Shown here: one piece after another, positions 3,867 to 52,615 of the stretch
Layout of the letters: the number at the start of each line of letters is the position of its first letter
How positions within the stretch are numbered: the stretch's first letter is position 1
Source: a virus
Taxonomy: Duplodnaviria; Caudoviricetes
Virus record (IMG/VR): IMGVR_UViG_3300025715_000012
Span: 83,413 to 147,412 of that record
Strand: one strand, 5' to 3'
Length of the DNA stretch: 64,000 nucleotides
The notes under the pieces: model-generated
What the model was told of the DNA's origin: nothing
What the model saw: only the letters and a program-made list of their open reading frames with translations
Database searches by the model: none
Position numbers and translations under genes: made by a program

Positions 3867-4196
3867 ATGAAACACTTGAAATTATATGAGCAGCTTGATT
3901 TTGAGGATCTATCGGACGAAGAACTTTTTGGTGATGAGAAAGATTTATTTCTAGGTAAAAATGGAAATACACTATATGTTTTATATGATCCAGAATGCAA
4001 ATCTGGAAGATTTAATAGATATTTGATGTATCGTGACCGATCAGATTATTATCCTTCGTATCCAAGAACTATTTTTACTCTGAATGTTTTGCCAGAAGAA
4101 AATTCTAAGATTGGATATTCATCTTATCAAGGTGGTATTCATTACACAACATGGAAAAATTTGGATCCAGAAATAAAGAAAAGAATAAAATTATGA
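3867..4196 (+). CDS. DLSDEELFG-tag cassette protein
   Basis: MKHLKLYEQLDFEDLSDEELFG N-terminus; TTWKNLDPEIKKRIKL C-terminus. Confidence 0.8.
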   Translation: MKHLKLYEQLDFEDLSDEELFGDEKDLFLGKNGNTLYVLYDPECKSGRFNRYLMYRDRSDYYPSYPRTIFTLNVLPEENSKIGYSSYQGGIHYTTWKNLDPEIKKRIKL

Positions 4197-4524
4197 AACA
4201 TATAAAATTATACGAGCAATATGATTTTGAAGATCTGTCAGACGAGGAGTTATTCGGTAAACAAGAAAAAGATTTATTTTTAGGTGAAAATGGGGGGGGG
4301 GGGGGGGGGCATTGTATATTTTGTGTCCTTCTGATAATTCACTTGATGTTGTTATATATGATCATATGGATGGAGTTGGCAAAGAAATATACCCAAGAGC
4401 AATGTTCGAATATAAATTTATTGTTAAAGAAAATTCTAGAATAGCGTATTTAGAGAATCGCAGGTTTCATTATACAACATGGAAAAAACTGGATCCAGAA
4501 ATAAAAGAAAGAATAAAAATATGA
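4193..4524 (+). pseudogene. DLSDEELFG-tag cassette gene frameshifted at a G18 tract
   Basis: Leader frame shifts at poly-G 4292-4309; downstream frame gives ALYILCP...TTWKKLDPEIKERIKI, matching the paralogs. Confidence 0.8.
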
Positions 4525-4841
4525 AACACGTAAAACTATACGAACAATTTGATTTTGAGGATCTTTCGGACGATGAACTTTTTGGTAAACAAGAGAAAGA
4601 TTTAACGATTGCAATATGTTCTGGTGATTATTATATTGTATATGCTTTTACAAATGAGATTCATATTTTTAATGAATACTTAACAAATGATGATGAACCT
4701 GGATATCCTATGAGAATATTTCATTTCGCTGAATATGTCCCAAGAGACACCCAAACCATATGTTATAGAAAAGGGGGTAATACAGCTAGATGTCTATGGA
4801 AAGATTTGTCAGAAGAAATAAAAGAAAGAATACAAATATGA
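4521..4841 (+). CDS. DLSDEELFG-tag cassette protein
   Basis: MKHVKLYEQFDFEDLSDDELFG; LWKDLSEEIKERIQI; ATGA overlaps at both ends. Confidence 0.8.
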   Translation: MKHVKLYEQFDFEDLSDDELFGKQEKDLTIAICSGDYYIVYAFTNEIHIFNEYLTNDDEPGYPMRIFHFAEYVPRDTQTICYRKGGNTARCLWKDLSEEIKERIQI

Positions 4842-5146
4842 AACATTTGAAAATATATGAACAATTTGACGAGAATGATCCTTGGGGTGAAGAGATCGTT
4901 CGTAATAATGACGAAATAAGACCAGAAATATATTTTACAATTGATTGTGATGGCGATATTGAATACGTGACTCCAATGGAATATGAAGACTTTGTGGAAA
5001 ATTTAGTAAATGGTGGAACTATACCTGTCGCTGAAAGAACCGAAGGAACTATATATCCAGATGGAAGAATTGTTTATCGGATTTGTACAGAAGTCAGTGA
5101 AGATTGGAATGATGATGTTTGGGAAGACAACGAAGTATTTATTTAA
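4838..5146 (+). CDS. Acidic protein with leader and DPWGEE tag
   Basis: MKHLKIYEQFDENDPWGEE. Confidence 0.8.
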   Translation: MKHLKIYEQFDENDPWGEEIVRNNDEIRPEIYFTIDCDGDIEYVTPMEYEDFVENLVNGGTIPVAERTEGTIYPDGRIVYRICTEVSEDWNDDVWEDNEVFI

Positions 5147-5162
5147 AAAAATGAAAAAAAAA

Positions 5163-5213
5163 ATGAAGAAACTGAAACTATATGAACAATTTCGATCAGT
5201 ATTTAGATGTTAA
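5163..5213 (+). pseudogene. Leader-only remnant
   Basis: MKKLKLYEQFRSVFRC*. Confidence 0.45.
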
Positions 5214-5250
5214 AAAAATTATATATAATAAAAAAAATAAAGACATTTAG

Positions 5251-5970
5251 ATGATAACCAAATATAATGAATATATTAAAGAAAACTCAGAATATAAACT
5301 CGATGGAAGAAATGGATTTTTTATGTTTTTGAAGACATTAGATGAGTTGAAAATGACATTTATAAAAACGAATCATTATTTATCAATAGGTAAATATTTA
5401 TATTTTTTCACAACAGAAAATTTGAAAAACAAAGACTCTGCTATTGATATATTAGATGATGTCATTTCTCTAAAAGTTTTATCAAAGACCTTGGAAGAAA
5501 ATAAAGACAAAAGATTATCTTTTTATTTTGGCGTCAAAGGATATAGTTTTGAATACGGGCTATGTGATGATATGACAAGCGAAGTTTATATGACGGGTGA
5601 ATTTGTTATAGATAATAATTTTTTGAAAAGTTTAAAATCGTATAAATGTTTGGTTATGATAGAAGATATTCTAAAAAAATCTAATGTGAGAAACCTCATA
5701 CTATTACACGAGATAAAAAATCATTTAAAGTCTTGGTATCCAGATAAAGGAAAACCAGTTATATTGAGCGAAGAAGTTCTAAAAAAGACAATATCCAGAT
5801 CTGATATAGGAGATGAAGCATATGATAAAGTGCTCTTTCGATATGAGCAATGGTGCGAAAAATATAAATGGATAGATAAAGTTTTTTATTATCTTGATGA
5901 TGACGAAGAGAAAAAAGAGATAACATTTTATATAAAAATTAAACCGAAAATTAAAGATAAAGAGTTGTGA
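5251..5970 (+). CDS. Hypothetical protein with leader MITKYNEYIKE
   Basis: 239-aa ORF; TATATATAA upstream; current stop codon supplied by the inserted element. Confidence 0.75.
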   Translation: MITKYNEYIKENSEYKLDGRNGFFMFLKTLDELKMTFIKTNHYLSIGKYLYFFTTENLKNKDSAIDILDDVISLKVLSKTLEENKDKRLSFYFGVKGYSFEYGLCDDMTSEVYMTGEFVIDNNFLKSLKSYKCLVMIEDILKKSNVRNLILLHEIKNHLKSWYPDKGKPVILSEEVLKKTISRSDIGDEAYDKVLFRYEQWCEKYKWIDKVFYYLDDDEEKKEITFYIKIKPKIKDKEL

Positions 5971-6016
5971 ACTACCACTAAACTAAAGATTTAGTGGTTT
6001 TCTTTGGAAATTGATT
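5967..6016 (-). mobile_element. 50-bp minimal IS200/IS605-type non-autonomous element (single hairpin)
   Basis: Minus strand: TTTAT|AATCAATTTCCAAAGAAAACCACTAAATCTTTAGTTTAGTGGTAGTTCAC; removal gives ...GAG TTA TAA, the same KDKEL* terminus. Confidence 0.75.
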
Positions 6017-6078
6017 ATAAATATTTTTTTATTAAAAATAATTATCATATTTTTGTTTAAAATAAAATATTGAGCCCT

Positions 6079-6399
6079 ATGCACGAAGAAACTGATAACT
6101 ATAATGTTATAGATGACTTAAATGAAACAAATCTTCTTATCAAAAAATATGACAGGAAGATAAAAATCTTTGGTTCTTTATATAAAGTGTCGAGAGTATT
6201 ATATTTTTTGACACCACTTGTTTTGTTTGCGGCAATATTTGGCGTAAATATTTTTGTAGTGCTGGGAATAACAGCATTTTCTATTTTATTTACCGGATAT
6301 CTATCTCTAAGATTTAAAACTCTATATTATATAAATTATTATGCTCTAAGTGGATTTGGTCAGTATAAAGAAAAGTTGATAGGAGAGATGTCAAAATGA
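6079..6399 (+). CDS. Small two-TM membrane protein
   Basis: Two hydrophobic segments; TATTTTTG box at 6048-6055. Confidence 0.65.
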   Translation: MHEETDNYNVIDDLNETNLLIKKYDRKIKIFGSLYKVSRVLYFLTPLVLFAAIFGVNIFVVLGITAFSILFTGYLSLRFKTLYYINYYALSGFGQYKEKLIGEMSK

Positions 6400-6551
6400 A
6401 AAATATATTGAAACTCTTTATCATTCTCATTGTTGTTTTATTTTTTTCATCTTGTGCGACAACATACAACAATTGCTCGATAAACGAATATAATAAATAT
6501 AGACAGGTACAAAGAACTATGTACAATATCGATAATCAATGTAAATTTTAA
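6396..6551 (+). CDS. Small putative lipoprotein
   Basis: MKNILKLFIILIVVLFFSS-C lipobox-like signal; not in the ORF track (<60 aa). Confidence 0.55.
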   Translation: MKNILKLFIILIVVLFFSSCATTYNNCSINEYNKYRQVQRTMYNIDNQCKF

Positions 6552-6570
6552 ATAAAAAAAATATAAATAT

Positions 6571-7263: not shown

Positions 7264-7791
7264 TTGAAACATTTAAAAATATACGAACAATTTGACTTTG
7301 ATGATTTTTCAGATGAAGAACTTTTTGGATTCAAAGACGACAATATAAAGATTGGTGATAAAGTTTATTTAATAAATGATGAAAACGCTCTCTATTATGA
7401 ATATGGAGGTGAATTTGTTTCTTCGGCTAATAGAATTAATTTTTCTGAAGAAGTAAAAGATATACAATTTATAAATGGCGAGAAATGTTTAAAAATAACC
7501 GGACTATGGTATAAATCAAGTTGTTTTTCTCTTACATCATTATTGGCGAAAATATCAAAAAAAGAACAATATGATTTTGAAGATCTATCTGATGAAGAAC
7601 TTTTTGGTAAGGAACCATTTGATTATACTGAATTGAAAGTTGGAGATTTGTTAGAATTAAAGAATGGTGAAATTGTAGAAGTTTATGCGGTGCCAAACAA
7701 AACAAGTTCATTATTATACATATTTGGTAGAAGAAGTGGGATTAGAAAAATTGACACAGAAGAAATAAAAAAAGTTATCAAAAAGAAATAA
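7264..7791 (+). CDS. Two-module DLSDEELFG-tag protein with KOW/SH3-like domains
   Basis: Tag occurs twice (FDFDDFSDEELFG; YDFEDLSDEELFG), each followed by [IL]K[IV]GDx[VL]; TAATATATA at 7235. Confidence 0.8.
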   Translation: MKHLKIYEQFDFDDFSDEELFGFKDDNIKIGDKVYLINDENALYYEYGGEFVSSANRINFSEEVKDIQFINGEKCLKITGLWYKSSCFSLTSLLAKISKKEQYDFEDLSDEELFGKEPFDYTELKVGDLLELKNGEIVEVYAVPNKTSSLLYIFGRRSGIRKIDTEEIKKVIKKK

Positions 7792-19527: not shown

Positions 19528-19782
19528 ATGAAACATATAAAATTATACGAGCAATTAAATAACAATGTAGATGATGAAGATCCTTGGGGAGAGGATATTG
19601 ATAGAAATGATAGAATAAAATATTTAAAAGACCGCATTAGTTTGTTGAAAGACGAATTAAAAATTCTCGAAAATGAATTACAAAATATATCACCTAAACC
19701 TACTCATATCATTCCTCCTCGTAGACAATATTATGATGATTTTAATTGGTTAGATCATTTCGATATCGATCAACGTTGGTGA
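19528..19782 (+). CDS. Coiled-coil protein with leader and DPWGE tag
   Basis: MKHIKLYEQLNNNVDDEDPWGED; TAATATATA at 19511. Confidence 0.75.
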   Translation: MKHIKLYEQLNNNVDDEDPWGEDIDRNDRIKYLKDRISLLKDELKILENELQNISPKPTHIIPPRRQYYDDFNWLDHFDIDQRW

Positions 19783-27711: not shown

Positions 27712-28099
27712 AAAGGTATAAAAATTATGAAATATTTAAAGATATACGAACAATTTGATTTCGAAGATCTTTCAGACGAAGAGATCTTTGGTAGAGAGCC
27801 AAAAAATTTCGAAATAGGCGATGTTGTTCATTTTACAAGAACGAGTTCAGTGAGATGGAATACGGAAAAATTACAAAAGAATAAACCGTTGTGGTTAGAT
27901 AGTACATTTTTTTCTAAAGAAAAATGGTTTGTTGTAACAGCAATAGGTCGTGTTGAAGATATGGATTTTATCAAGATTGTAGCATATAATAAAAAAACAA
28001 TTGGGAATCATCCGTATCAATTTTTCTGGTATGATGCTGACGCTTTTGAAAAGGTATAAAAATTATGAAATATTTAAAGATATACGAACAATTTGATTT
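27711..28099 (+). repeat. 51-nt exact direct repeat (27711-27761 and 28049-28099) spanning the cassette junction
   Basis: AAAAGGTATAAAAATTATGAAATATTTAAAGATATACGAACAATTTGATTT occurs twice. Confidence 0.9.
27727..28059 (+). CDS. DLSDEEIFG-tag cassette protein
   Basis: MKYLKIYEQFDFEDLSDEEIFG plus FEIGDVV. Confidence 0.8.
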   Translation: MKYLKIYEQFDFEDLSDEEIFGREPKNFEIGDVVHFTRTSSVRWNTEKLQKNKPLWLDSTFFSKEKWFVVTAIGRVEDMDFIKIVAYNKKTIGNHPYQFFWYDADAFEKV

Positions 28100-28143
28100 T
28101 GAGGATTATTATGAAGTTTTGAAAAGAGAGACTAAAAAAGAAA

Positions 28144-28869
28144 TTATTTTTTTAACGTCTCATAAAAATCTCCGATCTTTATCTCTTTGATTTCCATAGT
28201 GTTCTTATTCTTTATAACTATTTGAGTATCAAACGATTCGCATTTACCCACATTTGTTTCCCCCATTAAAACATTAAAAGTCCCTTTATCCCATCCACCA
28301 CCAAGCAATAAATCAACATTTCCCCAACCAGATGATATTTTATTTACGGAGACTTCTTGTTTGTGAGACTCGGGATCATCAAAATCGGCTCCTAGATCTT
28401 CATCATCATCTTCTATGATAGACAAATTATTGTATATGGATTTAACTTGCGCCAGTACATCAGAAGCATTATTATAGTCTATTCCCTTTAAATTTCTTAT
28501 TTTTTCAATGCTGTCATAAGCTGTGTTTTTCAATAATTTTTGAAGTTTCCAAGCTTTAAATTTGTCTTCTAACCACTCGGGATCATGTGAGCTATTGTCG
28601 TTTTTTAAAACAGCTTTTATTATATTATTTGATATTTTTTCCTCTGGATCACGAAGTTTTATCATAGCCAATATTTGCTGCGGAGCAGGAACTCTTTTTG
28701 ATTTGCTTACCAAATATTCATCCCGCACGGTTTTATATATGAATTGTATGTCTTCATTATCAAAAAAGGTCGGTTCTATTTTATAGAATTGTGTTGGATG
28801 ATCCAATATCCAAGTAAAGAAAAATTTTTCCATTTGAGAGTTCATTACCTCCATATTCTCATTTGCCAT
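28144..28869 (-). CDS. N-terminal part of a T4 gp41-like replicative helicase fused to a split N-intein
   Basis: ISSGW..VDLLLGGGW....VLMGETNVGK (Walker A), then CESFDTQI...IKIGDFYETLKK*. Confidence 0.88.
   Translation of the reverse strand: MANENMEVMNSQMEKFFFTWILDHPTQFYKIEPTFFDNEDIQFIYKTVRDEYLVSKSKRVPAPQQILAMIKLRDPEEKISNNIIKAVLKNDNSSHDPEWLEDKFKAWKLQKLLKNTAYDSIEKIRNLKGIDYNNASDVLAQVKSIYNNLSIIEDDDEDLGADFDDPESHKQEVSVNKISSGWGNVDLLLGGGWDKGTFNVLMGETNVGKCESFDTQIVIKNKNTMEIKEIKIGDFYETLKK
28147..28242 (-). other. 32-aa split intein N-fragment
   Basis: Block A CESFDTQIVI plus KEIKIGDFY, directly after the Walker A lysine. Confidence 0.8.
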
Positions 28870-28925: not shown

Positions 28926-29558
28926 ATGAGACATTTAAAAGTATACGATGAATATTTAAAAGAGGAAAAAAGTTGGTTCAATTTTTTAAAAAAACCAACG
29001 AAATATAAACCAATTCCAATTGACGAAAATGATCCTTGGGGTGAAGATACTCATAGAGAATATACTTTTGGTGATTGGTTTAAAAACAATCGATCAAAAA
29101 TAAAAAATTCTAGATTTCCTTTTTTAATAAAAACAATTGACTGCTCTCAAAGTATGATAACCAGTCTCAAAGGAATCGAGAAATTAATAAATCTTAGTTC
29201 TTTGACCTGCGCAGGAAATCTATTAAGTGATTTAAAGGGAATAGAAAATTTAAAACATCTGGAAATTCTATGGGTCTATGACAACAAACTGAAAAGTATA
29301 AAAGAAGTGAAAAATTTAAAAAATTTAAAAGAATTTTCTTGTTCTGGCAATCTATTAACAAGTTTAGAGGGAATAGAGAATTTGATAAATCTTGAAAGAT
29401 TATATTGCTATCTAAATCCAATAACTTGCGTCATTGGTATAGAAAAATTGAAGAATCTTCAGCAACTATATGCGTTTGGTGGCACTATGTTTTCAGAAAC
29501 ATATAAAGAATATTTGAAAAAATATTGTAGGAAAAAAAATATAGGATATATAATATGA
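28926..29558 (+). CDS. Leucine-rich repeat protein with leader and DPWGE tag
   Basis: MRHLKVYDEYLKE; NDPWGED; LxxLxCxxNxLxxLxGIExL repeats. Confidence 0.88.
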   Translation: MRHLKVYDEYLKEEKSWFNFLKKPTKYKPIPIDENDPWGEDTHREYTFGDWFKNNRSKIKNSRFPFLIKTIDCSQSMITSLKGIEKLINLSSLTCAGNLLSDLKGIENLKHLEILWVYDNKLKSIKEVKNLKNLKEFSCSGNLLTSLEGIENLINLERLYCYLNPITCVIGIEKLKNLQQLYAFGGTMFSETYKEYLKKYCRKKNIGYII

Positions 29559-31486: not shown

Positions 31487-32298
31487 TAGAATATAAGATG
31501 TCAGCGGAAAACAGAAAGATATACTCGGATAATATAAATCGAGTTTTATTTCCTATGTATAGAAAAATGGGCAAATTGAAAAGATTGAGCCCCCATAGTA
31601 TGTTTGGAGTAGTTGACACTGGATATGATTTACCAAGTGGAACAAGATCTTATGATTTTTATAATGGAAAAGATCCATATTGGTCTTTTTTGAATTATGT
31701 TAATACCAACATGCGTTCTTTCGCTGTTATTATGAAGCATTATAATGAAATGAATGATGAAAAAATATATAACGTGGACACCGCAGATAAAGTCACAAAA
31801 GTAAATAATTTTATAAATGAATATGCCGAAGAAATATTCAAACCGAGCGATGGTGTGTTTCGAGATTGTTTGTGGGATATACTTGGAAAAATATCAACGA
31901 CTAGATTTTATGGAGATTATGCCGAAGAAATAGCCGCTAGATTGTTGACAGAGAAATATAATATGGAAAATGTGGATAAAAGTGTTCCTGGCGATAAAAG
32001 AGATGCTTTCTATGGAGTTGATATAACATTTGACTTTAAAGGTAAAAATCAAACAGCTCAATGTAAGATTTATAACAATACTGGTTTAAAATTAGAAAAT
32101 GGCGGTTATCTATTTAGTGGTCCAGCAATTACAAATTATAAAAACATAGATTATTTTATTTTTGTGAATATGAATATGAGACATTTCTACATATTTCGCA
32201 CAATTAGTAAAGCCACAGGCGATAGAATAGAAATAAATGAAAATGGATACTTTTTTAAAGAATCCCTAAAAGTAGATGATGGAAGATATGAATATTGA
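31483..32298 (+). CDS. Hypothetical protein with PD-(D/E)xK-like C-terminus
   Basis: GDYAEE...DAFYGVD...TAQCK. Confidence 0.65.
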   Translation: MIEYKMSAENRKIYSDNINRVLFPMYRKMGKLKRLSPHSMFGVVDTGYDLPSGTRSYDFYNGKDPYWSFLNYVNTNMRSFAVIMKHYNEMNDEKIYNVDTADKVTKVNNFINEYAEEIFKPSDGVFRDCLWDILGKISTTRFYGDYAEEIAARLLTEKYNMENVDKSVPGDKRDAFYGVDITFDFKGKNQTAQCKIYNNTGLKLENGGYLFSGPAITNYKNIDYFIFVNMNMRHFYIFRTISKATGDRIEINENGYFFKESLKVDDGRYEY

Positions 32299-33292
32299 AA
32301 CATACATATTACAACATGCTTTTGAATTAAAGTTTCATGAGTCTAGGGATGATTATTTTGAATTTTTTCGAAATAAACTCGAAAACTCTTATATAAGATG
32401 TAAGCTCATTTCAGGTGCACGAGAAATAGAAGAGCACGGTAAAATAAAAAAAGTTACAATCAATCCAATAGATACAAGATCCATTGCGATTTATATAATT
32501 ATGGATAATGGTGATGAGGGATATATACATGTTTATGAACCAATTGTAATATCAAAGAAACCGTTCGAAAAAATTATAAAATTTGATTCAGAAGATGATC
32601 CATTTGGTGAAGATGCAGAATGGCATTGGGGTGAAATAAAAGAATCGAACCATACAATAGAAAATTTTACTATTGGCGATATAGTAAGACTGGATAGGAA
32701 TACAAAAGAATATAAAGAACTTTATCCACATCGCAGATATTTTTATGAGGTAGGAGAAGACGAATTTGGAGTTGTGGAAAGGGTTCTATATAACGAAAAT
32801 TTTATTATAGTTAAATGGGGAAGTGGATATTCAAATGCCTATAGATCAAATGAACTTATTATTGATATAAAAAAAGAAAAAAGAAAACAAAATTTAGAAG
32901 ATGATCCTTGGAATGAAGAAGATTGGGGATATGAAGAAATAAAAGAAAAAAATCATATGAAAAATTTTAGAATGTTTATAAACGAAAATTATACTTTAAC
33001 CATCGCTGATGGAGAAAGTGATTCTGAAGCCGTGTGGCTCGAAGAATGTGATGTGTCTGATATCTGGTCTGATTATAAAAGTGAAAAGATAAATGAAAAC
33101 AATTTCATCAACACTTATAATAGAAGACTCGTTGGGAAGAAAGATAAGCTCGTAAAAATTGGAGTTAAATGTTGGAATGAATTAGCTAAATTGATAAGAG
33201 AAGGAAATGATGATATGATGAAATATTTAGATGACATTTATGATTGGGCCGATAAATACGGAGTTAAAATAATATCAAAGAAAAATGATTGA
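32288..33292 (+). CDS. Three-module tagged protein (putative polyprotein)
   Basis: DDPFGEDAEWHWGEIKE and DDPWNEEDWGYEEIKE separators; internal leader HMKNFRMFINE. Confidence 0.75.
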   Translation: MNIETYILQHAFELKFHESRDDYFEFFRNKLENSYIRCKLISGAREIEEHGKIKKVTINPIDTRSIAIYIIMDNGDEGYIHVYEPIVISKKPFEKIIKFDSEDDPFGEDAEWHWGEIKESNHTIENFTIGDIVRLDRNTKEYKELYPHRRYFYEVGEDEFGVVERVLYNENFIIVKWGSGYSNAYRSNELIIDIKKEKRKQNLEDDPWNEEDWGYEEIKEKNHMKNFRMFINENYTLTIADGESDSEAVWLEECDVSDIWSDYKSEKINENNFINTYNRRLVGKKDKLVKIGVKCWNELAKLIREGNDDMMKYLDDIYDWADKYGVKIISKKND

Positions 33293-36135: not shown

Positions 36136-37134
36136 ATGGTTAATTCTTTTTATGTCGGGCAAAAAGTTTCTTTAAAAGAAGAATTGATAGGTGGTCGCTC
36201 AGTGTTTTTTAGTAGAAGCGCTATAAAAGACAACGATGGAACTATTGTTGATATTAATTTCAATAATGAATATCCATTAACTATCGACTGGAAAAACTCC
36301 AAGGATGTTGATTACACAAAATGTTATCGTTATGGGGTAGATGAAGTTGTACCAAAGGGGATGAAAAGAAAACTGAATTCGGATGATCCCTGGGGAGAAG
36401 AGAATTGGGGATGGGAAGAAGTGAAAGAAAATAATAACTATAAAGGTTTCAATATTGGAGATGAAGTTTTTGTACATGGGCACATGTCCAACATTCACTT
36501 TACTGGTCAAAAAGGAACTGTAATAAAGATTTTTGATTATTCAGATAGAATTTTAGTTAAATTTCCAGAACGATTTGATGACAATTTACACGATGGAAAT
36601 GGAGATGATGAAACAAATAGTTCATATTATATTGATTATGAACTTTTAACATTAGCCGACAATAAAAAAAGAAGAAGAAAACAAAATCTAAAAGACGATC
36701 CTTGGGATGAGGAGTATTGGGGATGGGAATTTAAAAGAAAAACCAATCCAGATGATGATCCTTGGAATGAAGAAGACTGGGGATGGGAGGAAGTAAGTGA
36801 ATCTAATAAATTTGATAATTTAATTGATTATTATATACCTTTTAAAACGAAAGAAGAAATGATCACAATAGCTAAAAAATTGGATGAGTTGGAATATATT
36901 GTTGCAAATTATAGAGAAGTTATTGTTGGAGTAGGATTTGATAATCCAGGACACAAGGTTTATTGTTACCATAAAGGAAAATTTATGAGGGCGACAATAG
37001 ATTTTGCTAATTATAATAATAAAAAAAAATTGAGCCTTGAAGATCTCATTGGGTTCAAAAAAGGAAAAAGAATAACTAATCCAGATGTTGATCCTTGGAA
37101 TGAAGAAGACTGGGGATGGGAAGAGATAAAATAA
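36136..37134 (+). CDS. Multi-module protein with four DPWxEExWGWE tags
   Basis: Three cargo domains, each followed by a basic linker and the tag; TAATATATA at 36107. Confidence 0.8.
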   Translation: MVNSFYVGQKVSLKEELIGGRSVFFSRSAIKDNDGTIVDINFNNEYPLTIDWKNSKDVDYTKCYRYGVDEVVPKGMKRKLNSDDPWGEENWGWEEVKENNNYKGFNIGDEVFVHGHMSNIHFTGQKGTVIKIFDYSDRILVKFPERFDDNLHDGNGDDETNSSYYIDYELLTLADNKKRRRKQNLKDDPWDEEYWGWEFKRKTNPDDDPWNEEDWGWEEVSESNKFDNLIDYYIPFKTKEEMITIAKKLDELEYIVANYREVIVGVGFDNPGHKVYCYHKGKFMRATIDFANYNNKKKLSLEDLIGFKKGKRITNPDVDPWNEEDWGWEEIK

Positions 37135-40334: not shown

Positions 40335-41111
40335 ATGGATTCACAGACATTCAAAAAGTTTTTTGAAAACTCTAGCACATATCATTCTTTTACAGATATT
40401 TTAAATTTGGCAAAAGAAACATCAGATTATATCTACAACAACGATATAATAAAAAGTAAGTTGTTCAACTCCTTTAAAGAAACCGATAAAGGATTTCAAC
40501 TCATTTTTGATAGAGTAGATAAAGATGATATATTTATAGACGCTAGCAAAAAGACAATTAAAGATAAAGAAGGAATAGATATAAATTTAGATAAAGCCTA
40601 TAGTGACATCGAAGATTTATATAGAGATATCAAATTGGAATTTTATGTAAATATAAAACAGATGAACGAAGGATTAAAAACCTTTGAAAAGTTCGCTGGA
40701 AATAAAATAAAAACTTTCTCTGAAATGTCTTTGATAAATGAAAAATTTACAGAAGAGTTTGATATGAAACTATCAGATGATTATAAATCTTTAAAGAAAG
40801 GAATTTTAGAATTAATTGATCAAACATTAAAAGGTGATGTTACAAAAATACAAAAATTTATCAATGATTATATTGAAGAAGACTCGGAAGAGGTCTTGGA
40901 TGGTTTCATCGAAGACGCGGACATATTCGATACCTATTTGAAATACCAATCGGATATAGACGAATTGCTTGATGAAGAATTAAATTATTTTAATGATGCT
41001 CCAACAGAAATTGGATTATATAATTATGTTGTTCGCGGAACATTTGAAGCAGTTGTCTATTGTATGAAATTAATAAAAGAAGAATTATTTGGAAAAGAAG
41101 AAAATGAATAG
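40335..41111 (+). CDS. Acidic protein with several leader-like segments
   Basis: TFKKFFE, NEGLKTFEKF, IKTFSEMSLINE. Confidence 0.75.
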   Translation: MDSQTFKKFFENSSTYHSFTDILNLAKETSDYIYNNDIIKSKLFNSFKETDKGFQLIFDRVDKDDIFIDASKKTIKDKEGIDINLDKAYSDIEDLYRDIKLEFYVNIKQMNEGLKTFEKFAGNKIKTFSEMSLINEKFTEEFDMKLSDDYKSLKKGILELIDQTLKGDVTKIQKFINDYIEEDSEEVLDGFIEDADIFDTYLKYQSDIDELLDEELNYFNDAPTEIGLYNYVVRGTFEAVVYCMKLIKEELFGKEENE

Positions 41112-41364
41112 AATTAAACTATACGAACAATTTGATTTTGAGGATCTCTCGGATGAAGAGCTCTTTGGTAAAAAAACTGCACCAGAAGTTGGAGACAGGA
41201 TTTTAATTTTAGATACATTAAGATATTACGTTATTCGACATGAATGGGATAAAAATATGTTAGAGATCATAGGAAAAGAGACCTATATCACTGAAATTTA
41301 TCATAATAAATATTATATAAGAGAAGGTTGGTACGTTTATAGAGATTGTTTTGAAATAATTTAG
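41104..41364 (+). CDS. DLSDEELFG-tag cassette protein
   Basis: MNRIKLYEQFDFEDLSDEELFG; paralog of the next ORF. Confidence 0.8.
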   Translation: MNRIKLYEQFDFEDLSDEELFGKKTAPEVGDRILILDTLRYYVIRHEWDKNMLEIIGKETYITEIYHNKYYIREGWYVYRDCFEII

Positions 41365-41371
41365 AAAAAAT

Positions 41372-41662
41372 ATGAAACATTTGAAACTATACGAACAATT
41401 TGATTTCGAAGACCTATCTGACGAGGAGCTTTTTGGTAAAAAAACTGAACCAGATATTGGAGATAAAATTTTAATTTTACCGAATTTAAAAGATTATATT
41501 TATGAATACAATTGGTCTGAAAAGATGTTGGATTTTATAGGAAAAGAATTTTCTATTACTAAAATAGTATTAAAAAATGATTATATAAGTCTTTATAATC
41601 AAAATAGATATTATATAAGAGATGGGTGGTTTATTTTTAGAGATTGTTTTGAATTAATTTAG
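41372..41662 (+). CDS. DLSDEELFG-tag cassette protein
   Basis: MKHLKLYEQFDFEDLSDEELFG...YYIRDGW..RDCFELI. Confidence 0.8.
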   Translation: MKHLKLYEQFDFEDLSDEELFGKKTEPDIGDKILILPNLKDYIYEYNWSEKMLDFIGKEFSITKIVLKNDYISLYNQNRYYIRDGWFIFRDCFELI

Positions 41663-41669
41663 AAAAGAT

Positions 41670-42020
41670 ATGAAGCATTTAAAATTATATGAGCAATATG
41701 ATCTCGAAGATCTCTCAGATGAAGAGATTTTTGGTGAAGAAGTGAAAAGAAATATGTTCAAAGCTAAAGAAGGATACTATGCTATTGAATTGAAAAGAAA
41801 TATGAGAGGCGAAAGACTTTATTTATATAAAGATTTTGAGTGGATTGATGTTGAAACTTATAATAAACATATTGTGAATGATTATCCGTTCTTTAACTTT
41901 GATGAATTAAATGATGATGATGAAATAATGATATATAATGATGGAATTTGGAATAAGCATAGAAAAAAAGATCTTCCAGAAAATATAAAAAAAGAAATAA
42001 ATGATTTAAATTTTTTATGA
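41670..42020 (+). CDS. DLSDEEIFG-tag cassette protein
   Basis: MKHLKLYEQYDLEDLSDEEIFG...KDLPENIKKEI. Confidence 0.8.
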   Translation: MKHLKLYEQYDLEDLSDEEIFGEEVKRNMFKAKEGYYAIELKRNMRGERLYLYKDFEWIDVETYNKHIVNDYPFFNFDELNDDDEIMIYNDGIWNKHRKKDLPENIKKEINDLNFL

Positions 42021-42349
42021 GACACGTAAAACTATATGAACAATATGATTTCGAAGATCTCTCGGACGAGGAGCTTTTTGGGACAAATAGAGGACCTTAT
42101 GACAATATTTTAGAATATGGTGAGAATGGACAGGAATTTAAAGCCGGTGATAGAGTTGTTTTAAAAAAAGATCAAAACCGACATTTAAGAGAAGGCGAGA
42201 TAGGAACTGTAGTTTGTTGTTCTGCTGACGATTACTTGATTTGTTTCGATTTTTATACATATGGGCATGAAGGAAATCCAGATGAAACTTATAATATACC
42301 CAGTGGTCACGGCTGGTATGTTCAAGAAAAATATTTAGAAAAGATATGA
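42017..42349 (+). CDS. DLSDEELFG-tag cassette protein with KOW/SH3-like cargo
   Basis: FKAGDRVV...GEIGTVV...GHGWYV. Confidence 0.8.
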   Translation: MRHVKLYEQYDFEDLSDEELFGTNRGPYDNILEYGENGQEFKAGDRVVLKKDQNRHLREGEIGTVVCCSADDYLICFDFYTYGHEGNPDETYNIPSGHGWYVQEKYLEKI

Positions 42350-42684
42350 AACACGTAAAACTATATGAGCAATTTAATTTTGATGATTTTTCGGACGAGG
42401 AGCTTTTTGGTGGACCAGAGAAAGATCTAAATTTGATGGCTACCGCTGATGATGATGGTAACAATAGTTACTATGTTGTTAAAAAATCTTATAAGAAAGA
42501 TCATTATGTCATTTTATTTGATGATGAATCCAATGTGGAGATTGAAGACGCTCTATTTGGAAACATAGATCCTCCACCTCCATTAGAAAATAGTAAAATT
42601 TCCGTTTTTGTAAATAGTAGAGGATTCGATGAATATAAATGGAAAGATCTACCTAAAGAAATAAAAGATAGAATAAATATTTAA
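42346..42684 (+). CDS. DFSDEELFG-tag cassette protein
   Basis: MKHVKLYEQFNFDDFSDEELFG...KWKDLPKEIKDRINI. Confidence 0.8.
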   Translation: MKHVKLYEQFNFDDFSDEELFGGPEKDLNLMATADDDGNNSYYVVKKSYKKDHYVILFDDESNVEIEDALFGNIDPPPPLENSKISVFVNSRGFDEYKWKDLPKEIKDRINI

Positions 42685-42710: not shown

Positions 42711-43574
42711 ATGAAACATTTAAAGCTTTTCGAATATTTTGAAAAAAGAAATGAGGAGGAAGAATCAAAAAGAGATCTTCTTTATTTCTCATTTGATATA
42801 GATGATAATTTACTTCATATGCCAACAAGAATACATATGGAACATCTAGTGGATGGCGAGTGGGTAGTCGAGCCTGTTGACACAGATAAGTTTGCGATAG
42901 TTCGTAAAGATAAAGAAAATTGGAGATATGGACCAGGTGATGAATCATTTGTTGAGTTCAGAGATTGGGGGCCAAGAGGAAAAGATACTTTTATGCATGA
43001 TTTTAAAAAAGCCGTGTATGATGGCAAATTTGGTCCATCTTGGAAAAAATTTATAGAATGCTTGGTAAATGGAAACATATTTTCAATCATAACATCTCGA
43101 GGGCATTCACCAATTAATGTCAGAAGAGCTATAGAATGGTTAATATATGAATATGGATTAAATAAATTCAAAAAACTTAATATAAAAAATGTTGATAATC
43201 AAGAAGATTTCGAAGAGCAAATGACAAATAATCTTTTAGAGTATCACGAGCTTTTTGGAACGGATCCAGATTATGTCATTGATCAATACCTTGATCTTTG
43301 TCCGATATATACAATATCATCACCTGAGTTCAAAGAAAGATTTCCAGGACTAAGTGCAGAGGAAAGTAAAAAGGTCGCCCTTAGAGATTTCAATAAAATA
43401 GTGCATGAATACGCTAATATATTGGGAGTTACTGCAAAATTAGGATTTTCTGATGACGATCCAGCATTTGTGAAAGCAGCCGCTGATGAGTTTTCAAAAT
43501 TGAGAGATGATTTCAAAAACGTAGATTATTCTGTTTTTGATACAGGCGGAAGACAGATGAAAAAATTTATGTAA
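42711..43574 (+). CDS. HAD-like hydrolase with leader
   Basis: MKHLKLFE; FDIDDN (motif I), IITSRGH (motif II), GFSDDD (motif IV); TAATATATA at 42682. Confidence 0.75.
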   Translation: MKHLKLFEYFEKRNEEEESKRDLLYFSFDIDDNLLHMPTRIHMEHLVDGEWVVEPVDTDKFAIVRKDKENWRYGPGDESFVEFRDWGPRGKDTFMHDFKKAVYDGKFGPSWKKFIECLVNGNIFSIITSRGHSPINVRRAIEWLIYEYGLNKFKKLNIKNVDNQEDFEEQMTNNLLEYHELFGTDPDYVIDQYLDLCPIYTISSPEFKERFPGLSAEESKKVALRDFNKIVHEYANILGVTAKLGFSDDDPAFVKAAADEFSKLRDDFKNVDYSVFDTGGRQMKKFM

Positions 43575-43931: not shown

Positions 43932-44645
43932 TTATAATCCAAATCTTCCTTTTGTTGAATTGTAATTTTGTAAAAAATCATTTGAAGACAAATTCGTGTT
44001 ATATATAGACAAACAAGATATATAACCATTATAATAATTATGACCAGGATAAAAGTAATGTCCGATTCTTATCGGATCAGTATTCGATGCCAATGTGCCA
44101 GAACCAACTGGCCCACCTGATACCTCATATCCATTCAAAAATAATCTTCCACCAATAACACTATCATACGACCAACCTATATTATACCAAGTATTTAATT
44201 CCAAAGCAGGACTCATTGGTGAAACAGGACCCCATGTCCCACCTCTATTAGCACCAAAATCAATCATTCTAGTATAAGGAGCCGATTTATAAAAATAATT
44301 AACAAAATTCGAATTCGATGTTGTTCCATTTTGACACTTTGATATGTGATGACTAGCATAACCAGTTGGAGTTGATATATTATAACACCAAAAAGAAATT
44401 GATATTTTTGATGTCAAATTTAAATTTGTAGTTCCACTGATTGATACATGACCATCAGAACCATTAAATAAAAATTTTCCTTCATTTTCACTATAATATG
44501 TTGCGCCTGTTATTGTTCCATCATAACCATTTCCGCTCAAATCATACCAATCATTTCCACTTCCAGAATAACTCTTTGAATTGGCTGCGTCCACATAAAG
44601 AATCAAATTGTTAGTTACTATATTCGGTCCAGCGTATATTGACAT
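43932..44645 (-). CDS. LamG/concanavalin A-like domain protein (probably virion-associated)
   Basis: LILYVDAANSKSY.GSG..WYDLSGN...QNYNSTKGRFGL. Confidence 0.85.
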   Translation of the reverse strand: MSIYAGPNIVTNNLILYVDAANSKSYSGSGNDWYDLSGNGYDGTITGATYYSENEGKFLFNGSDGHVSISGTTNLNLTSKISISFWCYNISTPTGYASHHISKCQNGTTSNSNFVNYFYKSAPYTRMIDFGANRGGTWGPVSPMSPALELNTWYNIGWSYDSVIGGRLFLNGYEVSGGPVGSGTLASNTDPIRIGHYFYPGHNYYNGYISCLSIYNTNLSSNDFLQNYNSTKGRFGL

Positions 44646-44660
44646 TTTTTGAATATTTTT

Positions 44661-45395
44661 TTATAATCCAAATCTTCCTTTTGTAGAATTGTAATTTTGA
44701 AGAATTTCAGAATCGGATAAGACTTTATTGTAAATTTGAACAGAACTTAGATAACATGGCGTAAAATAAGAAGTTCCACCTCTACTTAAAATATAAAGTA
44801 TTCTATTTCCAAAATTTGATGTGTTATTGTTTGAATAACCACCAACTCCCAATGATAATCTATTTTGCCCGTTTGTGTATAATTTTGTTTCTTTTCCAGA
44901 TGTTATAGTCATATCAAAAATCGCACACCAATTTTTCCAATTCAAATCATTTATGTATGTTTTGGACCACGCGTCATTATTATATCCAACGTTTCCCTTT
45001 ACTGCCAAAAAACATTCATAATTTTGTGATGCTGAATTATCATTAGCTGAGGCAACGAAGCAATCTGAATATGAATTGAAATTTGGACCAAGCTCGTATA
45101 GGACATATATATTAGATAAATCATAAGATTTTAATCTTATATTTAATGTGATGGTCAAAGAATTATAAGAGCTTAAATTTAAGTTATTTATTGTTTTGCA
45201 ATAGTCACCAGATCCATTAAAAGAAAAATAACCATTTTCCCAAGTTATTCCAGTTCCATTGAGAGAAACATTATTATTATTCCCGCTCAAATCATACCAA
45301 TCGGTTCCGCTCCCAGGATAACTCTTCGGATTAGCAGCATCCAGATATAAAACCAATCCATCAGTAACTATTTTTGGTGAATAACTTGTGCTCAT
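44661..45395 (-). CDS. LamG-like domain protein
   Basis: Same conserved ends as its neighbours. Confidence 0.85.
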   Translation of the reverse strand: MSTSYSPKIVTDGLVLYLDAANPKSYPGSGTDWYDLSGNNNNVSLNGTGITWENGYFSFNGSGDYCKTINNLNLSSYNSLTITLNIRLKSYDLSNIYVLYELGPNFNSYSDCFVASANDNSASQNYECFLAVKGNVGYNNDAWSKTYINDLNWKNWCAIFDMTITSGKETKLYTNGQNRLSLGVGGYSNNNTSNFGNRILYILSRGGTSYFTPCYLSSVQIYNKVLSDSEILQNYNSTKGRFGL

Positions 45396-46003
45396 AATCC
45401 AAACCTCCCCTTTATAGAATTATAATTTTGTAAACTTTCAGAAGATGTTAAATTTTTATCGTATATCATTATTGTGGATATTGCACCATCTGTAAAAGTA
45501 TAACTTCCATATTTACTGAAATAAAGCATATTCCAAGGATTTGTTAAAAAATTACAACTTTTAAATTCAACCATATGCCAATTATTATCCAATAAATAAT
45601 CATAAATATTAGTTTTTTGTGAACAGTCCATATGAAAAGTTGGTGAGCCTATTCTGCTATTATAAAATTTGCTTCCAACTCTATATGCCCCCAAAAAATA
45701 AGCACTGCTATTTGGGTCAGCTGTCCAAAATAAAGATTGATTGTCTGTTGTCTTTATCCAAAACACGCATGTCGCTGTCAAGCTGTTTGTCGTCATTCCT
45801 GTGTGTGTGATCCCTCCGCCGCTCATAGAGAAATAACCGCCTCCACTATATGCAAATCCATTATTATCAATAACAAAATCATTTTTATTTCCACTCAAAT
45901 CATACCAATTCGTTCCGCTGCCAGGATAACTCTTTGAATTAGCAGCGTCCAGATATAAAACAAGTCCATCTGTTACAATTCTTGGAGAGTGGTGAAAAGC
46001 CAT
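45392..46003 (-). CDS. LamG-like domain protein
   Basis: Same conserved ends; TAATATATA at 46023-46031 (-). Confidence 0.85.
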   Translation of the reverse strand: MAFHHSPRIVTDGLVLYLDAANSKSYPGSGTNWYDLSGNKNDFVIDNNGFAYSGGGYFSMSGGGITHTGMTTNSLTATCVFWIKTTDNQSLFWTADPNSSAYFLGAYRVGSKFYNSRIGSPTFHMDCSQKTNIYDYLLDNNWHMVEFKSCNFLTNPWNMLYFSKYGSYTFTDGAISTIMIYDKNLTSSESLQNYNSIKGRFGL

Positions 46004-49888: not shown

Positions 49889-49914
49889 AAAACCCGGCTA
49901 AAACCGGGTTTTTT
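49889..49914. terminator. Bidirectional terminator
   Basis: AAAACCCGG-CTAAAA-CCGGGTTTTTT. Confidence 0.8.
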
Positions 49915-49919
49915 ATTTT

Positions 49920-50201
49920 TTAAAAATGTCCTTTAACATATTCTTCTATTATATCAATTTCTTCTTCTCTAAGATCTTTTGTATCTTCAAATTCGACTTT
50001 TTTACTATAATCACCCCAATATTCATCAGATTCTTCAACTGTCCCTTCATATTCTTTGTCACCATAAAACAGACTCCATCTTTTAACGATGAGACTATTG
50101 ATCACACTCGATTCATAATTAGATATTTCCTTTTGCTTTATCGGAGCGTCTTCACCCCAAGGATCATCATCAGATTGTTCGTATAGTTTCAAGTGCTTCA
50201 T
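49920..50201 (-). CDS. Acidic protein with leader and DPWGE tag
   Basis: MKHLKLYEQSDDDPWGED. Confidence 0.8.
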   Translation of the reverse strand: MKHLKLYEQSDDDPWGEDAPIKQKEISNYESSVINSLIVKRWSLFYGDKEYEGTVEESDEYWGDYSKKVEFEDTKDLREEEIDIIEEYVKGHF

Positions 50202-50527
50202 ATTTTTATTCTTTCTTTTATTTCTGGATCGAGATCCCCCCATTTTGTGTAGTTTAAACGCCTGTGAAACGCACCTCTGTATACTATTACTGATGTATAT
50301 CTAATTCTAGTATCATAATCAATTTCAGAATTAAAAGAAAACATGCTTTTTGGATACATACGCGTGCCTCCACAATAAACAGTAAACATATCATTTTCTT
50401 GGGGCACGAGAACATAAAATCTGGATTTGTGTTTACCCAACACTAAATCTTTCTCTTTTTCGCCAAAAAGCTCTTCATCCGACAGATCCTCGAAATCAAA
50501 TTGCTCATATAGTTTCATATGTTTCAT
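50198..50527 (-). CDS. DLSDEELFG-tag cassette protein
   Basis: MKHMKLYEQFDFEDLSDEELFG...TKWGDLDPEIKERIKI. Confidence 0.8.
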   Translation of the reverse strand: MKHMKLYEQFDFEDLSDEELFGEKEKDLVLGKHKSRFYVLVPQENDMFTVYCGGTRMYPKSMFSFNSEIDYDTRIRYTSVIVYRGAFHRRLNYTKWGDLDPEIKERIKI

Positions 50528-50541
50528 TAAAAATATATATT

Positions 50542-50727
50542 CTATTTTCTTTTTGAAAAATAATTATCTATTTTATTGTGTAAAAGGCCGATTAAAATTG
50601 CCAATCCACTCAAAGAAACTGCTATGATATTTGTTATTGGCGTGTATAAACCGAAATATCCCATAACAACAATAATAAAAATTAATGTTATGACTATCAA
50701 TGTTGCTGAAAATTTTAATGAGTTCAT
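50542..50727 (-). CDS. Small two-TM membrane protein
   Basis: Two hydrophobic helices. Confidence 0.55.
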   Translation of the reverse strand: MNSLKFSATLIVITLIFIIVVMGYFGLYTPITNIIAVSLSGLAILIGLLHNKIDNYFSKRK

Positions 50728-50743
50728 TTATTTTTTATTTTTT

Positions 50744-51454
50744 TTATTCTATTGGTAGATAATCTATTAAAGATGATATATCTTCGTCATCATCACCATC
50801 ATCTTCTTCGTTATCATTATCTTTTAAATCTATTTCTCCAATATGTTTTACTATGAGCGGCTCTTTTGTTGGCGGTCCGCCTTCATATTCTTCCGAGACA
50901 TACTTATCGAAACCTTTTATATGGCTTTCATATGTTGTTTCTTCACCCCAAGGATCATCTTCCATAAGTTTTTCTTTTCCTTCAAAGGGCAATAAATCTT
51001 CTAGTCTATACCAACATGTTTTGCCATTGTCAAATCGAACTTTGTAATCATATGGGTTCCAATCATTTGAAGGAAAATAATCAATGATCACTCCTATTTT
51101 GCCCGCAAAGAGGACCGCGCTCGGAACAATTCTAACTTTTTTTCCAATTTTTCTGAAGTTTGAATTTTCATTTATATGGCTTTCATATTCAAATTTTGTC
51201 TCTTCGCCCCAAGGATCATCTTCAATTCTTATTTCGCGTTTTATTTTCTTTTCTTTTATTGGCAATAAATCTATGTCTCTATATTCATTTCTATGTCCAT
51301 TGCTCCATTTAACACAATAAAAATAATCATCATTATCATCATAAAGTTTCACAACAACACCAAACCCATCTCCACCCTTTTCCATAGCTTGATCATAATA
51401 TTGAGAATCTGGGTTAATCCTAACTTTTTCGCCTATTTCATATTTATATATCAT
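50744..51454 (-). CDS. Two SH3-like modules, each followed by DDPWGEE..YESH
   Basis: IGEKVRI..VKWSNG.RN.YR and IGKKVRI..VRFDNG...YR; TAATATATA at 51461 (-). Confidence 0.8.
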   Translation of the reverse strand: MIYKYEIGEKVRINPDSQYYDQAMEKGGDGFGVVVKLYDDNDDYFYCVKWSNGHRNEYRDIDLLPIKEKKIKREIRIEDDPWGEETKFEYESHINENSNFRKIGKKVRIVPSAVLFAGKIGVIIDYFPSNDWNPYDYKVRFDNGKTCWYRLEDLLPFEGKEKLMEDDPWGEETTYESHIKGFDKYVSEEYEGGPPTKEPLIVKHIGEIDLKDNDNEEDDGDDDEDISSLIDYLPIE

Positions 51455-51517
51455 ATGACATATATATTAAAAAAGAAAAATAAAAATTAATATATAAGAA
51501 TAAAAAAAAAATTCAAA

Positions 51518-52021
51518 ATGATAAAAGATTGGAGCCAATATTTTGAAAGTCTAACTATACCAGGGCTAAAAATGGATGATTTCGTTAAAGGAATACAACC
51601 AGCTGGAAAACAACATAAAAACATATTATCGATGCATTTCAACACGTATGAAAATTATGTTGATTTGAGCGATCCTCAAAAACACATATTCAAAGTCAAT
51701 GATTTGACCGGAGACATATTAAATAATGGACGTGTTCAGTTTAATGCTATGATTTTTGGTAAAGAAGAGATAGAAACAACTATTAGAGATAATATTGTAA
51801 CTCTTTCAATGGCAGAGTTTTATTCAAACTTACCCAATCAACTTAATATTTTTGGTGTAGATATTAAACCGATATCTTTTATAAATAAAGATGATTTGAA
51901 ATATTCATTTGAAAATATATTGACAATTGATGAGCTAAAAAGAATAATAACCTCTGTCTCTGATGGATTCTTTTTTGTTGGTGAAAGAGACGGATATTAT
52001 ATTTGGAGAAAAAATATTTAA
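51518..52021 (+). CDS. Hypothetical protein with leader MIKDWSQYFE
   Basis: TAATATATA at 51488. Confidence 0.7.
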   Translation: MIKDWSQYFESLTIPGLKMDDFVKGIQPAGKQHKNILSMHFNTYENYVDLSDPQKHIFKVNDLTGDILNNGRVQFNAMIFGKEEIETTIRDNIVTLSMAEFYSNLPNQLNIFGVDIKPISFINKDDLKYSFENILTIDELKRIITSVSDGFFFVGERDGYYIWRKNI

Positions 52022-52027
52022 AAAATC

Positions 52028-52615
52028 TTGGAAAGAAAAATAGACACATTTTCATCTTTTGGTGAGCATGAAAGCATAAATATTGGCGATACAGCCATCT
52101 TGATAGATAATAAGATGGCTCTACTTTCAGAGAGAGATTATACATTTAGAGATAGTATAAGAGAAATAGGGAGTAAAATTATTGTGGCTGGCAAAAGATT
52201 GACAATCAATGGAGTGCCAATAATAAAAGATGCGAAGAGTAGAAAATGGTATAAAGAAGAAAATTTTAGAAAACTTTATGAAAAAGAATTTGAAAATGTG
52301 GATGGGCATATAAGAAAGTATGAACAATTTGACTTTGATGATATATCGGATGAAGAACTTTTCGGTAAATCAAATGATGAAATTAAAGTTGGAGATCTCG
52401 TAAAACTAATTGAACCAAATGCCTTATATGTAAATGGTAAACTTTTTCGTACTGGTAGTCTAAATTTAGATGAAAAATATAAAGTTGTTAACATAGATAT
52501 AGAAGGAAATTTCATTTTGATAAGGGTGGCTCGTGAAATTGACACAGCATTTGGGCATATATCTCATGCAATAATCGCCTGGTATGACATAAATTGTTTT
52601 AAAAAAATCACTTAA
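52028..52615 (+). CDS. Two-module protein with internal leader and DISDEELFG tag
   Basis: Internal GHIRKYEQFDFDDISDEELFG. Confidence 0.75.
   Translation: MERKIDTFSSFGEHESINIGDTAILIDNKMALLSERDYTFRDSIREIGSKIIVAGKRLTINGVPIIKDAKSRKWYKEENFRKLYEKEFENVDGHIRKYEQFDFDDISDEELFGKSNDEIKVGDLVKLIEPNALYVNGKLFRTGSLNLDEKYKVVNIDIEGNFILIRVAREIDTAFGHISHAIIAWYDINCFKKIT

Follow-up and report, generated by a model that had tools for sequence, protein, structure and literature searches.

A portable N-terminal peptide joined to many unrelated small proteins in a large uncultured phage

Results

On a 147-kb contig of a large uncultured phage, about 26 small and otherwise unrelated proteins have in common a 22-residue N-terminal peptide, hereafter the head. 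The contig carries 19 copies of the acidic tag that forms the second part of the typical head and 22 copies of a different tag, DPWGE. Most of what follows concerns a stretch of 64,000 nucleotides of this phage (the window); six further tagged genes lie on the contig outside it. In the window, a strict pattern count agreed with the 13 copies in 12 open reading frames that an initial annotation had reported, position by position, and a looser core of 8 residues gave 13 matches, against none in 100 plain and 100 codon-block shuffles. Residues L/I6, Y7, E8 and Q9 of the head are invariant or nearly so, and F21-G22 is present in all heads and is followed by a variable residue.

The genes lie in two tandem arrays (3867-5146 and 41104-42684) and as single genes, much as had been described (plus strand unless stated). 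Array 1 opens with a gene for a head, an acidic tag and a cargo of subfamily A (3867..4196), followed by a second member of subfamily A (4193..4524), frameshifted at a run of 18 G (4292-4309) where one added G would unite the head and tail frames, by a third subfamily A gene with head and acidic tag (4521..4841) and by a last gene in which the head is joined to DPWGE (4838..5146). A decayed head remnant of 16 codons and a stop is found at 5163..5213. Array 2 comprises two genes of cargo subfamily B (41104..41364, with head and acidic tag, and 41372..41662), a subfamily A-like gene (41670..42020), a subfamily C gene encoding an SH3/KOW-like barrel (42017..42349) and a subfamily A gene (42346..42684). 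The domain of its second gene is found again on the contig, headless and with a C-terminal DPWGE tag. Next after this array comes a gene for an untagged protein of 287 aa whose head is a variant (42711..43574); the homologue of this protein in a 243-kb relative is 65% identical.

Outside the arrays, a two-domain fusion with cargo of subfamily D, which is SH3-like, holds two copies of the motif (7264..7791): a head and tag at the N-terminus and, further in, a second copy that retains the acidic tag without the first residues. A lone gene with head, acidic tag and SH3-like cargo (27727..28059) is followed by a decayed, truncated duplicate of its head with identical upstream bases (28065..28190) and, further on, by a gene for an LRR protein that combines a DPWGE tag with a variant head (28926..29558). 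Another lone gene joins head and DPWGE (19528..19782). On the minus strand, a subfamily A member (50198..50527) has a head and DPWGE gene downstream of it (49920..50201). A further fusion carries an internal head and acidic tag between two SH3-like domains (52028..52615), and at 52653..53402 a DeoC/LacD-family aldolase begins with 9 residues of the head only. As the initial annotation had noted, DPWGE occupies the same place after the head at 4838, 19528 and 50201 (minus strand), two arrays close with a DPWGE-type gene, and five genes share the C-terminal end W-K-x-L-x-x-E-I-K-x-R-I, with an ATGA overlap with the next start codon.

Mean pairwise identity is 81% among heads and 23% among cargos, and the array content differs among relatives, which bears out the earlier idea of a constant head on diverse, fast-diverging cargos. 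Could DNA-level exchange among cassettes, by recombination or gene conversion, explain the uniformity of the head, in the manner of the mobile regulatory cassettes of T4-type phages? Local repeats speak for such exchange, namely 144-200 nt at 73-83% in array 2 and the previously reported junction repeat of 139 nt at 86% identity in array 1 (4138-4276 versus 4466-4604), as does the duplicated head at 27727 and 28065. However, among 16 heads the same codon is used at identical residues at a rate of 0.58, versus 0.61 expected from codon usage; heads show no nucleotide identity in excess of the needs of the protein sequence, save in local duplicates; and the DNA upstream of heads is unconserved, save after the common C-terminal end. 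Because synonymous sites are randomised, selection acts on the head peptide, and only local duplications such as 4138-4604 are recent. Shuffling by recombination, as proposed earlier, is thus largely refuted as a general mechanism, and we hold DNA-level homogenisation of the head to be highly improbable. Strong selection at the protein level maintains the head, a portable N-terminal peptide that has come to stand on many unrelated small proteins in this phage clade.

The cargos form at least six clusters without mutual similarity, mostly small beta-barrels (SH3/KOW-like) and also LRR proteins and the DeoC aldolase. The term hypervariable, applied to them before, is too strong for these fast-diverging proteins, since apart from the LRR proteins they belong to a small number of small beta-barrel families. 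Pfam searches on the cargos returned no family apart from a weak hint of DUF4926. For subfamily A, atlas and fold searches gave nothing significant (best Z 4.0, to MBT/Tudor-like barrels; no Foldseek E-value below 0.1), and for subfamily C the fold search gave weak SH3/KOW matches only (E 0.01-0.05). In AlphaFold models of two members the head is of low confidence, flexible and unpacked against the cargo, with a short helix at residues 17-21; pLDDT is 74.5 overall and 51-63 in the head for the 50198..50527 protein, and in the 42017..42349 protein the head and the next 14 residues are disordered.

These proteins might simply be an ordinary expanded paralogue family, with an N-terminal segment that is the most constrained part for reasons of stability, turnover or efficient translation start and has no address function. 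Similar M-K-x-L/I-K-x-F/Y-E starts occur on many genes of the clade, the codons of the head are AT-rich with AAA at position 2, and a metabolic enzyme carries the bare head. We nevertheless consider this explanation unlikely: the same 22 residues stand on mutually dissimilar cargos including LRR proteins, hence not on one family; amino acids are kept with codons free, so that over residues 11-22 a signal in the mRNA is ruled out; and the tag is retained at internal positions.

The acidic stretch, which had been suggested to be a second tag, behaves as a separable module by slot swapping, by internal retention and by its occurrence in a second lineage. In distant relatives DP[F/W]GE takes its place on the same cargo type, and because fused genes keep it in internal copies that have lost the first residues, the tag does not depend on being N-terminal. 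An unrelated lineage of higher GC content (45-48%) has acidic-LFG sequences at N-termini and about every 100 residues within large proteins; this second lineage had no match among deposited phages. Near its genes, only a ClpP-type protease and a GP88-family gene were recognised. A literature search on DPWGE returned nothing relevant. It is possible, and we put it forward tentatively, that an acidic run followed by hydrophobic-F/W/Y-Gly (S-D-E-E-L-F-G, DP[W/F/Y]GE) constitutes a new short linear motif in large phages whose use does not depend on position, a second address, used by at least two unrelated lineages and lying outside the T4 capsid-targeting paradigm, that would sort or dock dozens of small domains onto one phage-built structure.

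A somewhat unlikely explanation is that the head and the DPWGE-type tags are docking motifs with no link to the capsid, bringing many small domain proteins together on a single hub inside the host cell during infection, for example a chaperone, a scaffold or part of a factory for replication or transcription. The occurrence of tags at N-termini, in linkers and at C-termini argues for it, together with carriers such as the aldolase and multi-domain 'beads on a string' proteins, the acidic-LFG repeats inside large proteins of the unrelated lineage, a gp32-like SSB of one relative that begins with an acidic run and then F-L-F-G, and the resemblance of the tag ending to the T4 gp45 clamp-binding motif L-D-F-L-F-G/D (PMC6212786). 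On the other hand, no clamp gene (PF02916, PF00712) was matched in G000-G004, which are fragments, the hydrophobic pattern of the head is unlike L-D-F-L-F, the narrow distribution described below speaks against a conserved host hub, and the conservation of N-terminal L/I-Y-E-Q and the T4-type head genes of a relative would be left unexplained.

The tags might instead be cleavage sites at which a phage protease releases domains from precursors, the candidates being a papain-like C1 peptidase encoded at 57949-58770, an M16 peptidase and the head protease. The S2/S1 preference of papain-type enzymes is well matched by a bulky F/W before Gly, the motifs of the C1 peptidase look by eye like the papain Cys, His and Asn regions, and inter-domain linkers carry tags. 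An L/I-x-E motif lies at most 14 residues after DPWGE in 10 of 37 cases, versus a background of 15%; this excess is marginal and, because it comes mostly from one related linker type, unconvincing. With an N-terminal site the leader itself would still call for an explanation, which points again to targeting, and we regard cleavage at the tags as quite unlikely. As the tag protease, the papain-like enzyme itself was rated unlikely, since its homologues in other phages occur at loci without tags, once beside a CHAP domain in a lysis-like cassette.

The family is limited to 51 clusters among 1.84 billion, and this confinement fits a phage-specific partner; nucleotide and protein searches found no match in 50,697 deposited phage records. 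A 735-kb megaphage was rejected as a carrier: its GroEL is 77% identical to one here, yet the family is absent from it. The closest complete relative, G006 (243 kb), encodes a Gp23 capsid protein (PF07068, E 6e-25), a head maturation protease (phrog_207, E 1.5e-26; PF03420 weak), a portal protein (phrog_213) and a head closure protein. Its LRR proteins carry a related head with D-P-Y-G-E-E, and the acidic-tag form is absent from it. Capsid, head protease and portal genes were not found on the present contig (80% complete by CheckV), nor was a gp21-family protease or gp23-type capsid protein on G001-G003 and G005, all of them fragments. Genes flanking the arrays had no counterparts on the relatives' fragments examined. 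The sequence TAATATATA(A/G), a promoter-like motif, lies ahead of the capsid, protease, portal and baseplate genes of G006 and also ahead of the first genes of most head arrays here, and is absent before the Hsp70, TK, M16 and RNR genes.

Discussion

What would a phage gain from placing one peptide on so many different proteins? In our analysis the best reading, to which we give slightly less than an even chance, is that the head combines a T4-style capsid-targeting leader with a new acidic docking module. Residues 1-10 would be a derived T4 capsid-targeting sequence (CTS), with aromatics three apart and an L/I-x-E site for a gp21-type head protease. Under this reading the proteins would be expressed late, loaded into the core of the prohead and cut after E8. 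Residues 11-22, an acidic run ending in hydrophobic-F/W-Gly, may form an independent short docking motif, exchangeable with DP[W/F/Y]GE and functional at an N-terminal, internal or C-terminal position. A role after ejection, as injected or anti-defence proteins, is conceivable.

The comparison with T4 made in the initial annotation has a real basis: G006 encodes a capsid protein of the Gp23 family, a protease for head maturation and a portal of T4 type, and the invariant L/I-Y-E at residues 6-8 of the head fits the motif cut by that protease family (PMC9026906). In T4, gp21 cuts after L/I-x-E, and residues 4 and 7 of the CTS carry targeting (PMC9026906). Y7 and F/Y/L10 match the spacing of residues 4 and 7 of IPIII if the head has three extra N-terminal residues, in an alignment of 10 residues that is too short for statistics. 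Where T4 has I/L at its processing residues, the head aligns with D/N, so that the alternative L-Y-E is present and the T4 site proper is missing. A second N-terminal class, which matches the full T4 CTS pattern, is enriched about 24-fold at N-termini in the clade (24 of 666 proteins versus 0.15% of internal windows). Besides this D/N difference, several observations run against the targeting reading. The best-conserved part, the acidic tag, lies beyond the proposed cut, for which the T4 model has no explanation, and the density of heads on the contig is far above the handful of CTS proteins of T4. The tag also occurs at internal positions, head genes were not found on this contig, and the closest complete relative is without the acidic-tag form. 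The bare head starts the DeoC aldolase, which speaks against an effector role for all head-bearing proteins, and with related N-termini on other enzyme-like proteins the first nine residues may in part represent a favoured start context.

Should the head prove to be a loading tag, the capsid of this clade would receive a protein set far larger and more modular than that of T4, and the head could serve to identify injected proteins of uncultured phages and to bring foreign proteins into capsids of this type. Less expected is the separable acidic-aromatic-Gly module, which resembles a short linear motif of the eukaryotic kind; finding its partner could reveal an undescribed protein-sorting or docking step in large phages.

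Several known systems resemble the head in part. The double-glycine leaders of bacteriocins and peptide pheromones, handled by C39 peptidase/ABC exporters, share with it a length of about 22-24 residues, an L-S-x-x-E-L core, a Gly end and a variable cargo that reaches about 90 residues. In the head, unlike these leaders, position -2 is F and not the G of GG, GA or GS, and the spacing after E-L is four residues shorter, and no C39 exporter was seen among the proteins scanned. The gp45 clamp-binding motif of T4 gp43 and DNA ligase is likewise acidic-hydrophobic, ends in L-F-G, has a short amphipathic helix, modelled or solved, and can be used at a terminus or in a loop (PMC6212786), but only L-F-G is held in common and the carriers here far exceed the needs of a replisome. 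In phiKZ, 201phi2-1 and SPN3US, which are also large phages, many paralogous head-internal proteins have propeptides cut after Glu by a diverged gp21 homologue (PMC9026906, PMC5694885); there the homology covers whole proteins and the site is S/A/G-x-E, whereas here it is confined to the leader and the site is L/I-x-E-like. The T4 internal proteins IPI, IPII, IPIII and Alt, whose CTS is removed by gp21, differ in that their leader has 10 residues and not 22. In the present phage the acidic tag lies past the putative cut, about 26 carriers occur per 147 kb, copies can be internal and cargos are beta-barrels, LRR proteins and an aldolase. What T4 shares with this family is a short N-terminal leader on unrelated proteins from variable loci (PMC9026906, PMC3012670), aromatics three apart if the offset of three residues holds, an L/I-x-E motif that may serve as the cleavage site and, in the complete relative, a capsid, protease and portal of T4 type.

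Results

The initial annotation had described a 13-residue acidic pattern, tandem arrays and single genes, a common C-terminal end overlapping the start codon of the following gene, a repeated gene junction and DPWGE genes at the end of two arrays, and all of these elements are present in the window. Twelve ORFs contain 13 strict copies of the pattern between them, the arrays occupy 3867-5146 (array 1) and 41104-42684, and the junction repeat spans 139 nt at 86% identity. The 8-residue core of the pattern gave 13 matches versus 0 in 200 shuffles. The whole contig carries 19 acidic tags (residues 11-22 of the near-constant 22-residue N-terminal peptide, here called the head), about 26 heads and also 22 copies of DPWGE, a second tag that can occupy the same slot after the head start. 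Two heads, at 5163 and 28065, are decayed, and in three ORFs, which look like read-through fusions of adjacent genes, the head is internal.

A frameshift within a run of 18 G (4292-4309) splits the second gene of array 1, so that the head and tail of this family member are out of frame by one base. This run, the sole G or C homopolymer of at least 8 on the 147-kb contig, may act as a phase-variable switch, mark a pseudogene or stem from misassembly. A relative, G002, carries an intergenic G10 run and C11 run 10 bases apart (53266-53296; L023 15266-15296), together a perfect G/C hairpin stem within AT-rich surroundings. Immediately 5′ of array 1 lies a gene for a stand-alone response-regulator receiver domain (3497-3865) that, to judge from a promoter-like motif, probably shares its transcription unit.

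That motif, TAATATATA(A/G), is found about 30 or 14 bases 5′ of the start codons of about a quarter of genes, far above chance; examples in the window precede 7264, 19528, 42711, 50527(-), 52653, 57949 and 61540(-). Most head arrays on the contig have it before their opening gene. In G006, a relative with a complete 243-kb genome, it precedes capsid, protease, portal and baseplate genes and is not found before Hsp70, TK, M16 or PurA-like genes. This placement fits late expression of the head arrays, with which it is consistent without being proof.

The window is the final 64 kb of a linear virus record of 147,412 bp (28.7% G+C; CheckV completeness estimate 80%), whose gene set is phage-type: DnaB-like helicase, primase-like protein and ParB; GroEL, the C-terminal half of Hsp70 and DnaJ; ribonucleotide reductase, thymidine kinase and PPK2; homing endonucleases and collagen-like fibre genes. 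No capsid, portal, terminase or head protease gene was found on this 80% complete contig. Elsewhere the Hsp70 gene is split (737-1873 and 3449-4045; L001, genome coordinates 737-4045, outside the window) by an unrelated 368-aa ORF, both pieces matching a single 626-aa Hsp70 of G006. Within the window, a flavodoxin/FMN-reductase-like protein (29555-31486) contains an interrupting intein that bears a LAGLIDADG endonuclease domain, and three tandem paralogues of 237, 244 and 203 aa (43932-46003, minus strand) have matches in the C-terminal portion of a large phage 'virion structural protein' family (phrog_24074, phrog_8510). A papain-family (C1) cysteine peptidase without signal peptide (57949-58770) keeps, as judged by eye, motifs resembling the Cys, His and Asn regions of papain; its homologues in other phages are 40-47% identical, and one of them, located after tail genes, adjoins a CHAP domain.

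Searched with a profile, 1.84 billion protein clusters yielded only 51 family members, all encoded on a few phage contigs from metagenomes (194 kb at most), whose arrays vary in number and content and whose members are 35-60% identical to those described here. G006, reached via the baseplate gene of one relative, has 46 of its 229 proteins in common with the contig (median identity 43%).

Among the 15 full members on the contig, mean pairwise identity is 81% for heads versus 23% for cargos (the remainder of each protein; maximum 48%). Such heads might be no more than a plain constrained N-terminus, a reading we consider improbable. Another is that they are cassettes conserved as DNA. Of identical residues in two heads, 58% also have the same codon, versus 61% predicted by genome codon usage alone; thus head DNA is not being homogenised and selection acts on the peptide, which makes DNA-level cassettes very improbable. 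DNA 5′ of the heads is unrelated between genes, except where the preceding gene ends in the common C-terminal motif. Recent duplication is real, but local.

The cargos are not random: by clustering they sort into two related subfamilies with the common C-terminal end, one whose domain also exists headless with DPWGE at its C-terminus, a subfamily resembling DUF4926 and another that is SH3-like, LRR proteins, and a large group of multi-domain proteins with DPWGE linkers. AlphaFold models of two subfamilies contain small beta-rich domains, one with weak SH3/KOW matches (E 0.01-0.05) and the other with no match above Z 4 in structure comparison. In both models the head is of low confidence, with a short helix only at residues 17-21 and no packing against the cargo. 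A DeoC-family aldolase begins with the bare 9-residue start of the head. Several proteins (32276-33292, 36136-37134 and 50744-51454(-); also genome 50657-52462) resemble beads on a string, in which a basic stretch plus D-D-P-W-G-E-E-N-W-G-W-E-E connects small domains of barrel or alpha/beta type; single-domain versions terminate in the same tag.

The acidic tag itself is a separate module. In its slot, some distant relatives of cargo subfamily A, to which the first gene of array 1 belongs, have an acidic run that is shorter and ends I-F-G, and others D-P-F-G-E-E, doubled in one case. The first five or six head residues are missing from the internal copies in fused genes, which retain E-Q plus the full acidic tag. 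An unrelated phage-like lineage of 45-48% G+C (contigs L038, L045, L046) has consecutive large genes that each start M-R-Y-x-E-L/I-I/V-E, followed by an acidic run and L-F-G, and acidic-L-F-G recurs about every 100 residues within them. On one of its contigs a ClpP-type protease lies upstream. What all tag forms share is an acidic run, followed in order by a residue that is hydrophobic or proline, by F/W/Y, by Gly and by a charged residue.

Discussion

A T4-style loading model would account for the N-terminal position of the head and its invariant L/I-Y-E-Q, for how narrowly the family is distributed, for the way its arrays behave and for the putative late promoter. It leaves unexplained that the best-conserved part lies beyond the putative cut, that tags are also internal and at C-termini, and that an aldolase bears the head. 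These last facts are what a docking motif for a hub would explain, and such a motif does not explain the points that loading covers; as the whole explanation we consider it rather unlikely. Because each model explains only one set of facts, we propose that the head may combine two modules, a T4-style loading leader and a separate docking motif, a tentative reading to which we give somewhat less than an even chance. That the linkers are protease sites had marginal support when examined, and seems to us quite improbable.

The connection with T4 comes through G006. Its capsid protein belongs to the Gp23 family (E 6e-25), and immediately 5′ of the capsid gene is encoded a protein of 808 residues that over its first 224 matches a head maturation protease (phrog_207, E 1.5e-26; PF03420 weak); a T4-type portal and head closure protein are also present. 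The acidic-tag head is absent from this complete genome, in which six or seven LRR-type proteins open with a related head and then D-P-Y-G-E-E. In T-even phages, the leader is the sole common feature of the internal proteins (PMC3012670). The T4 protease cuts after L/I-x-E, and of the 10 residues of the capsid targeting sequence, 4 and 7 are needed for targeting and 8 and 10 for processing (PMC9026906). In the head described here, residues 6-8 are L/I-Y-E and aromatic residues are spaced three apart; another N-terminal class of the clade, enriched about 24-fold at N-termini, fits the full T4 pattern.
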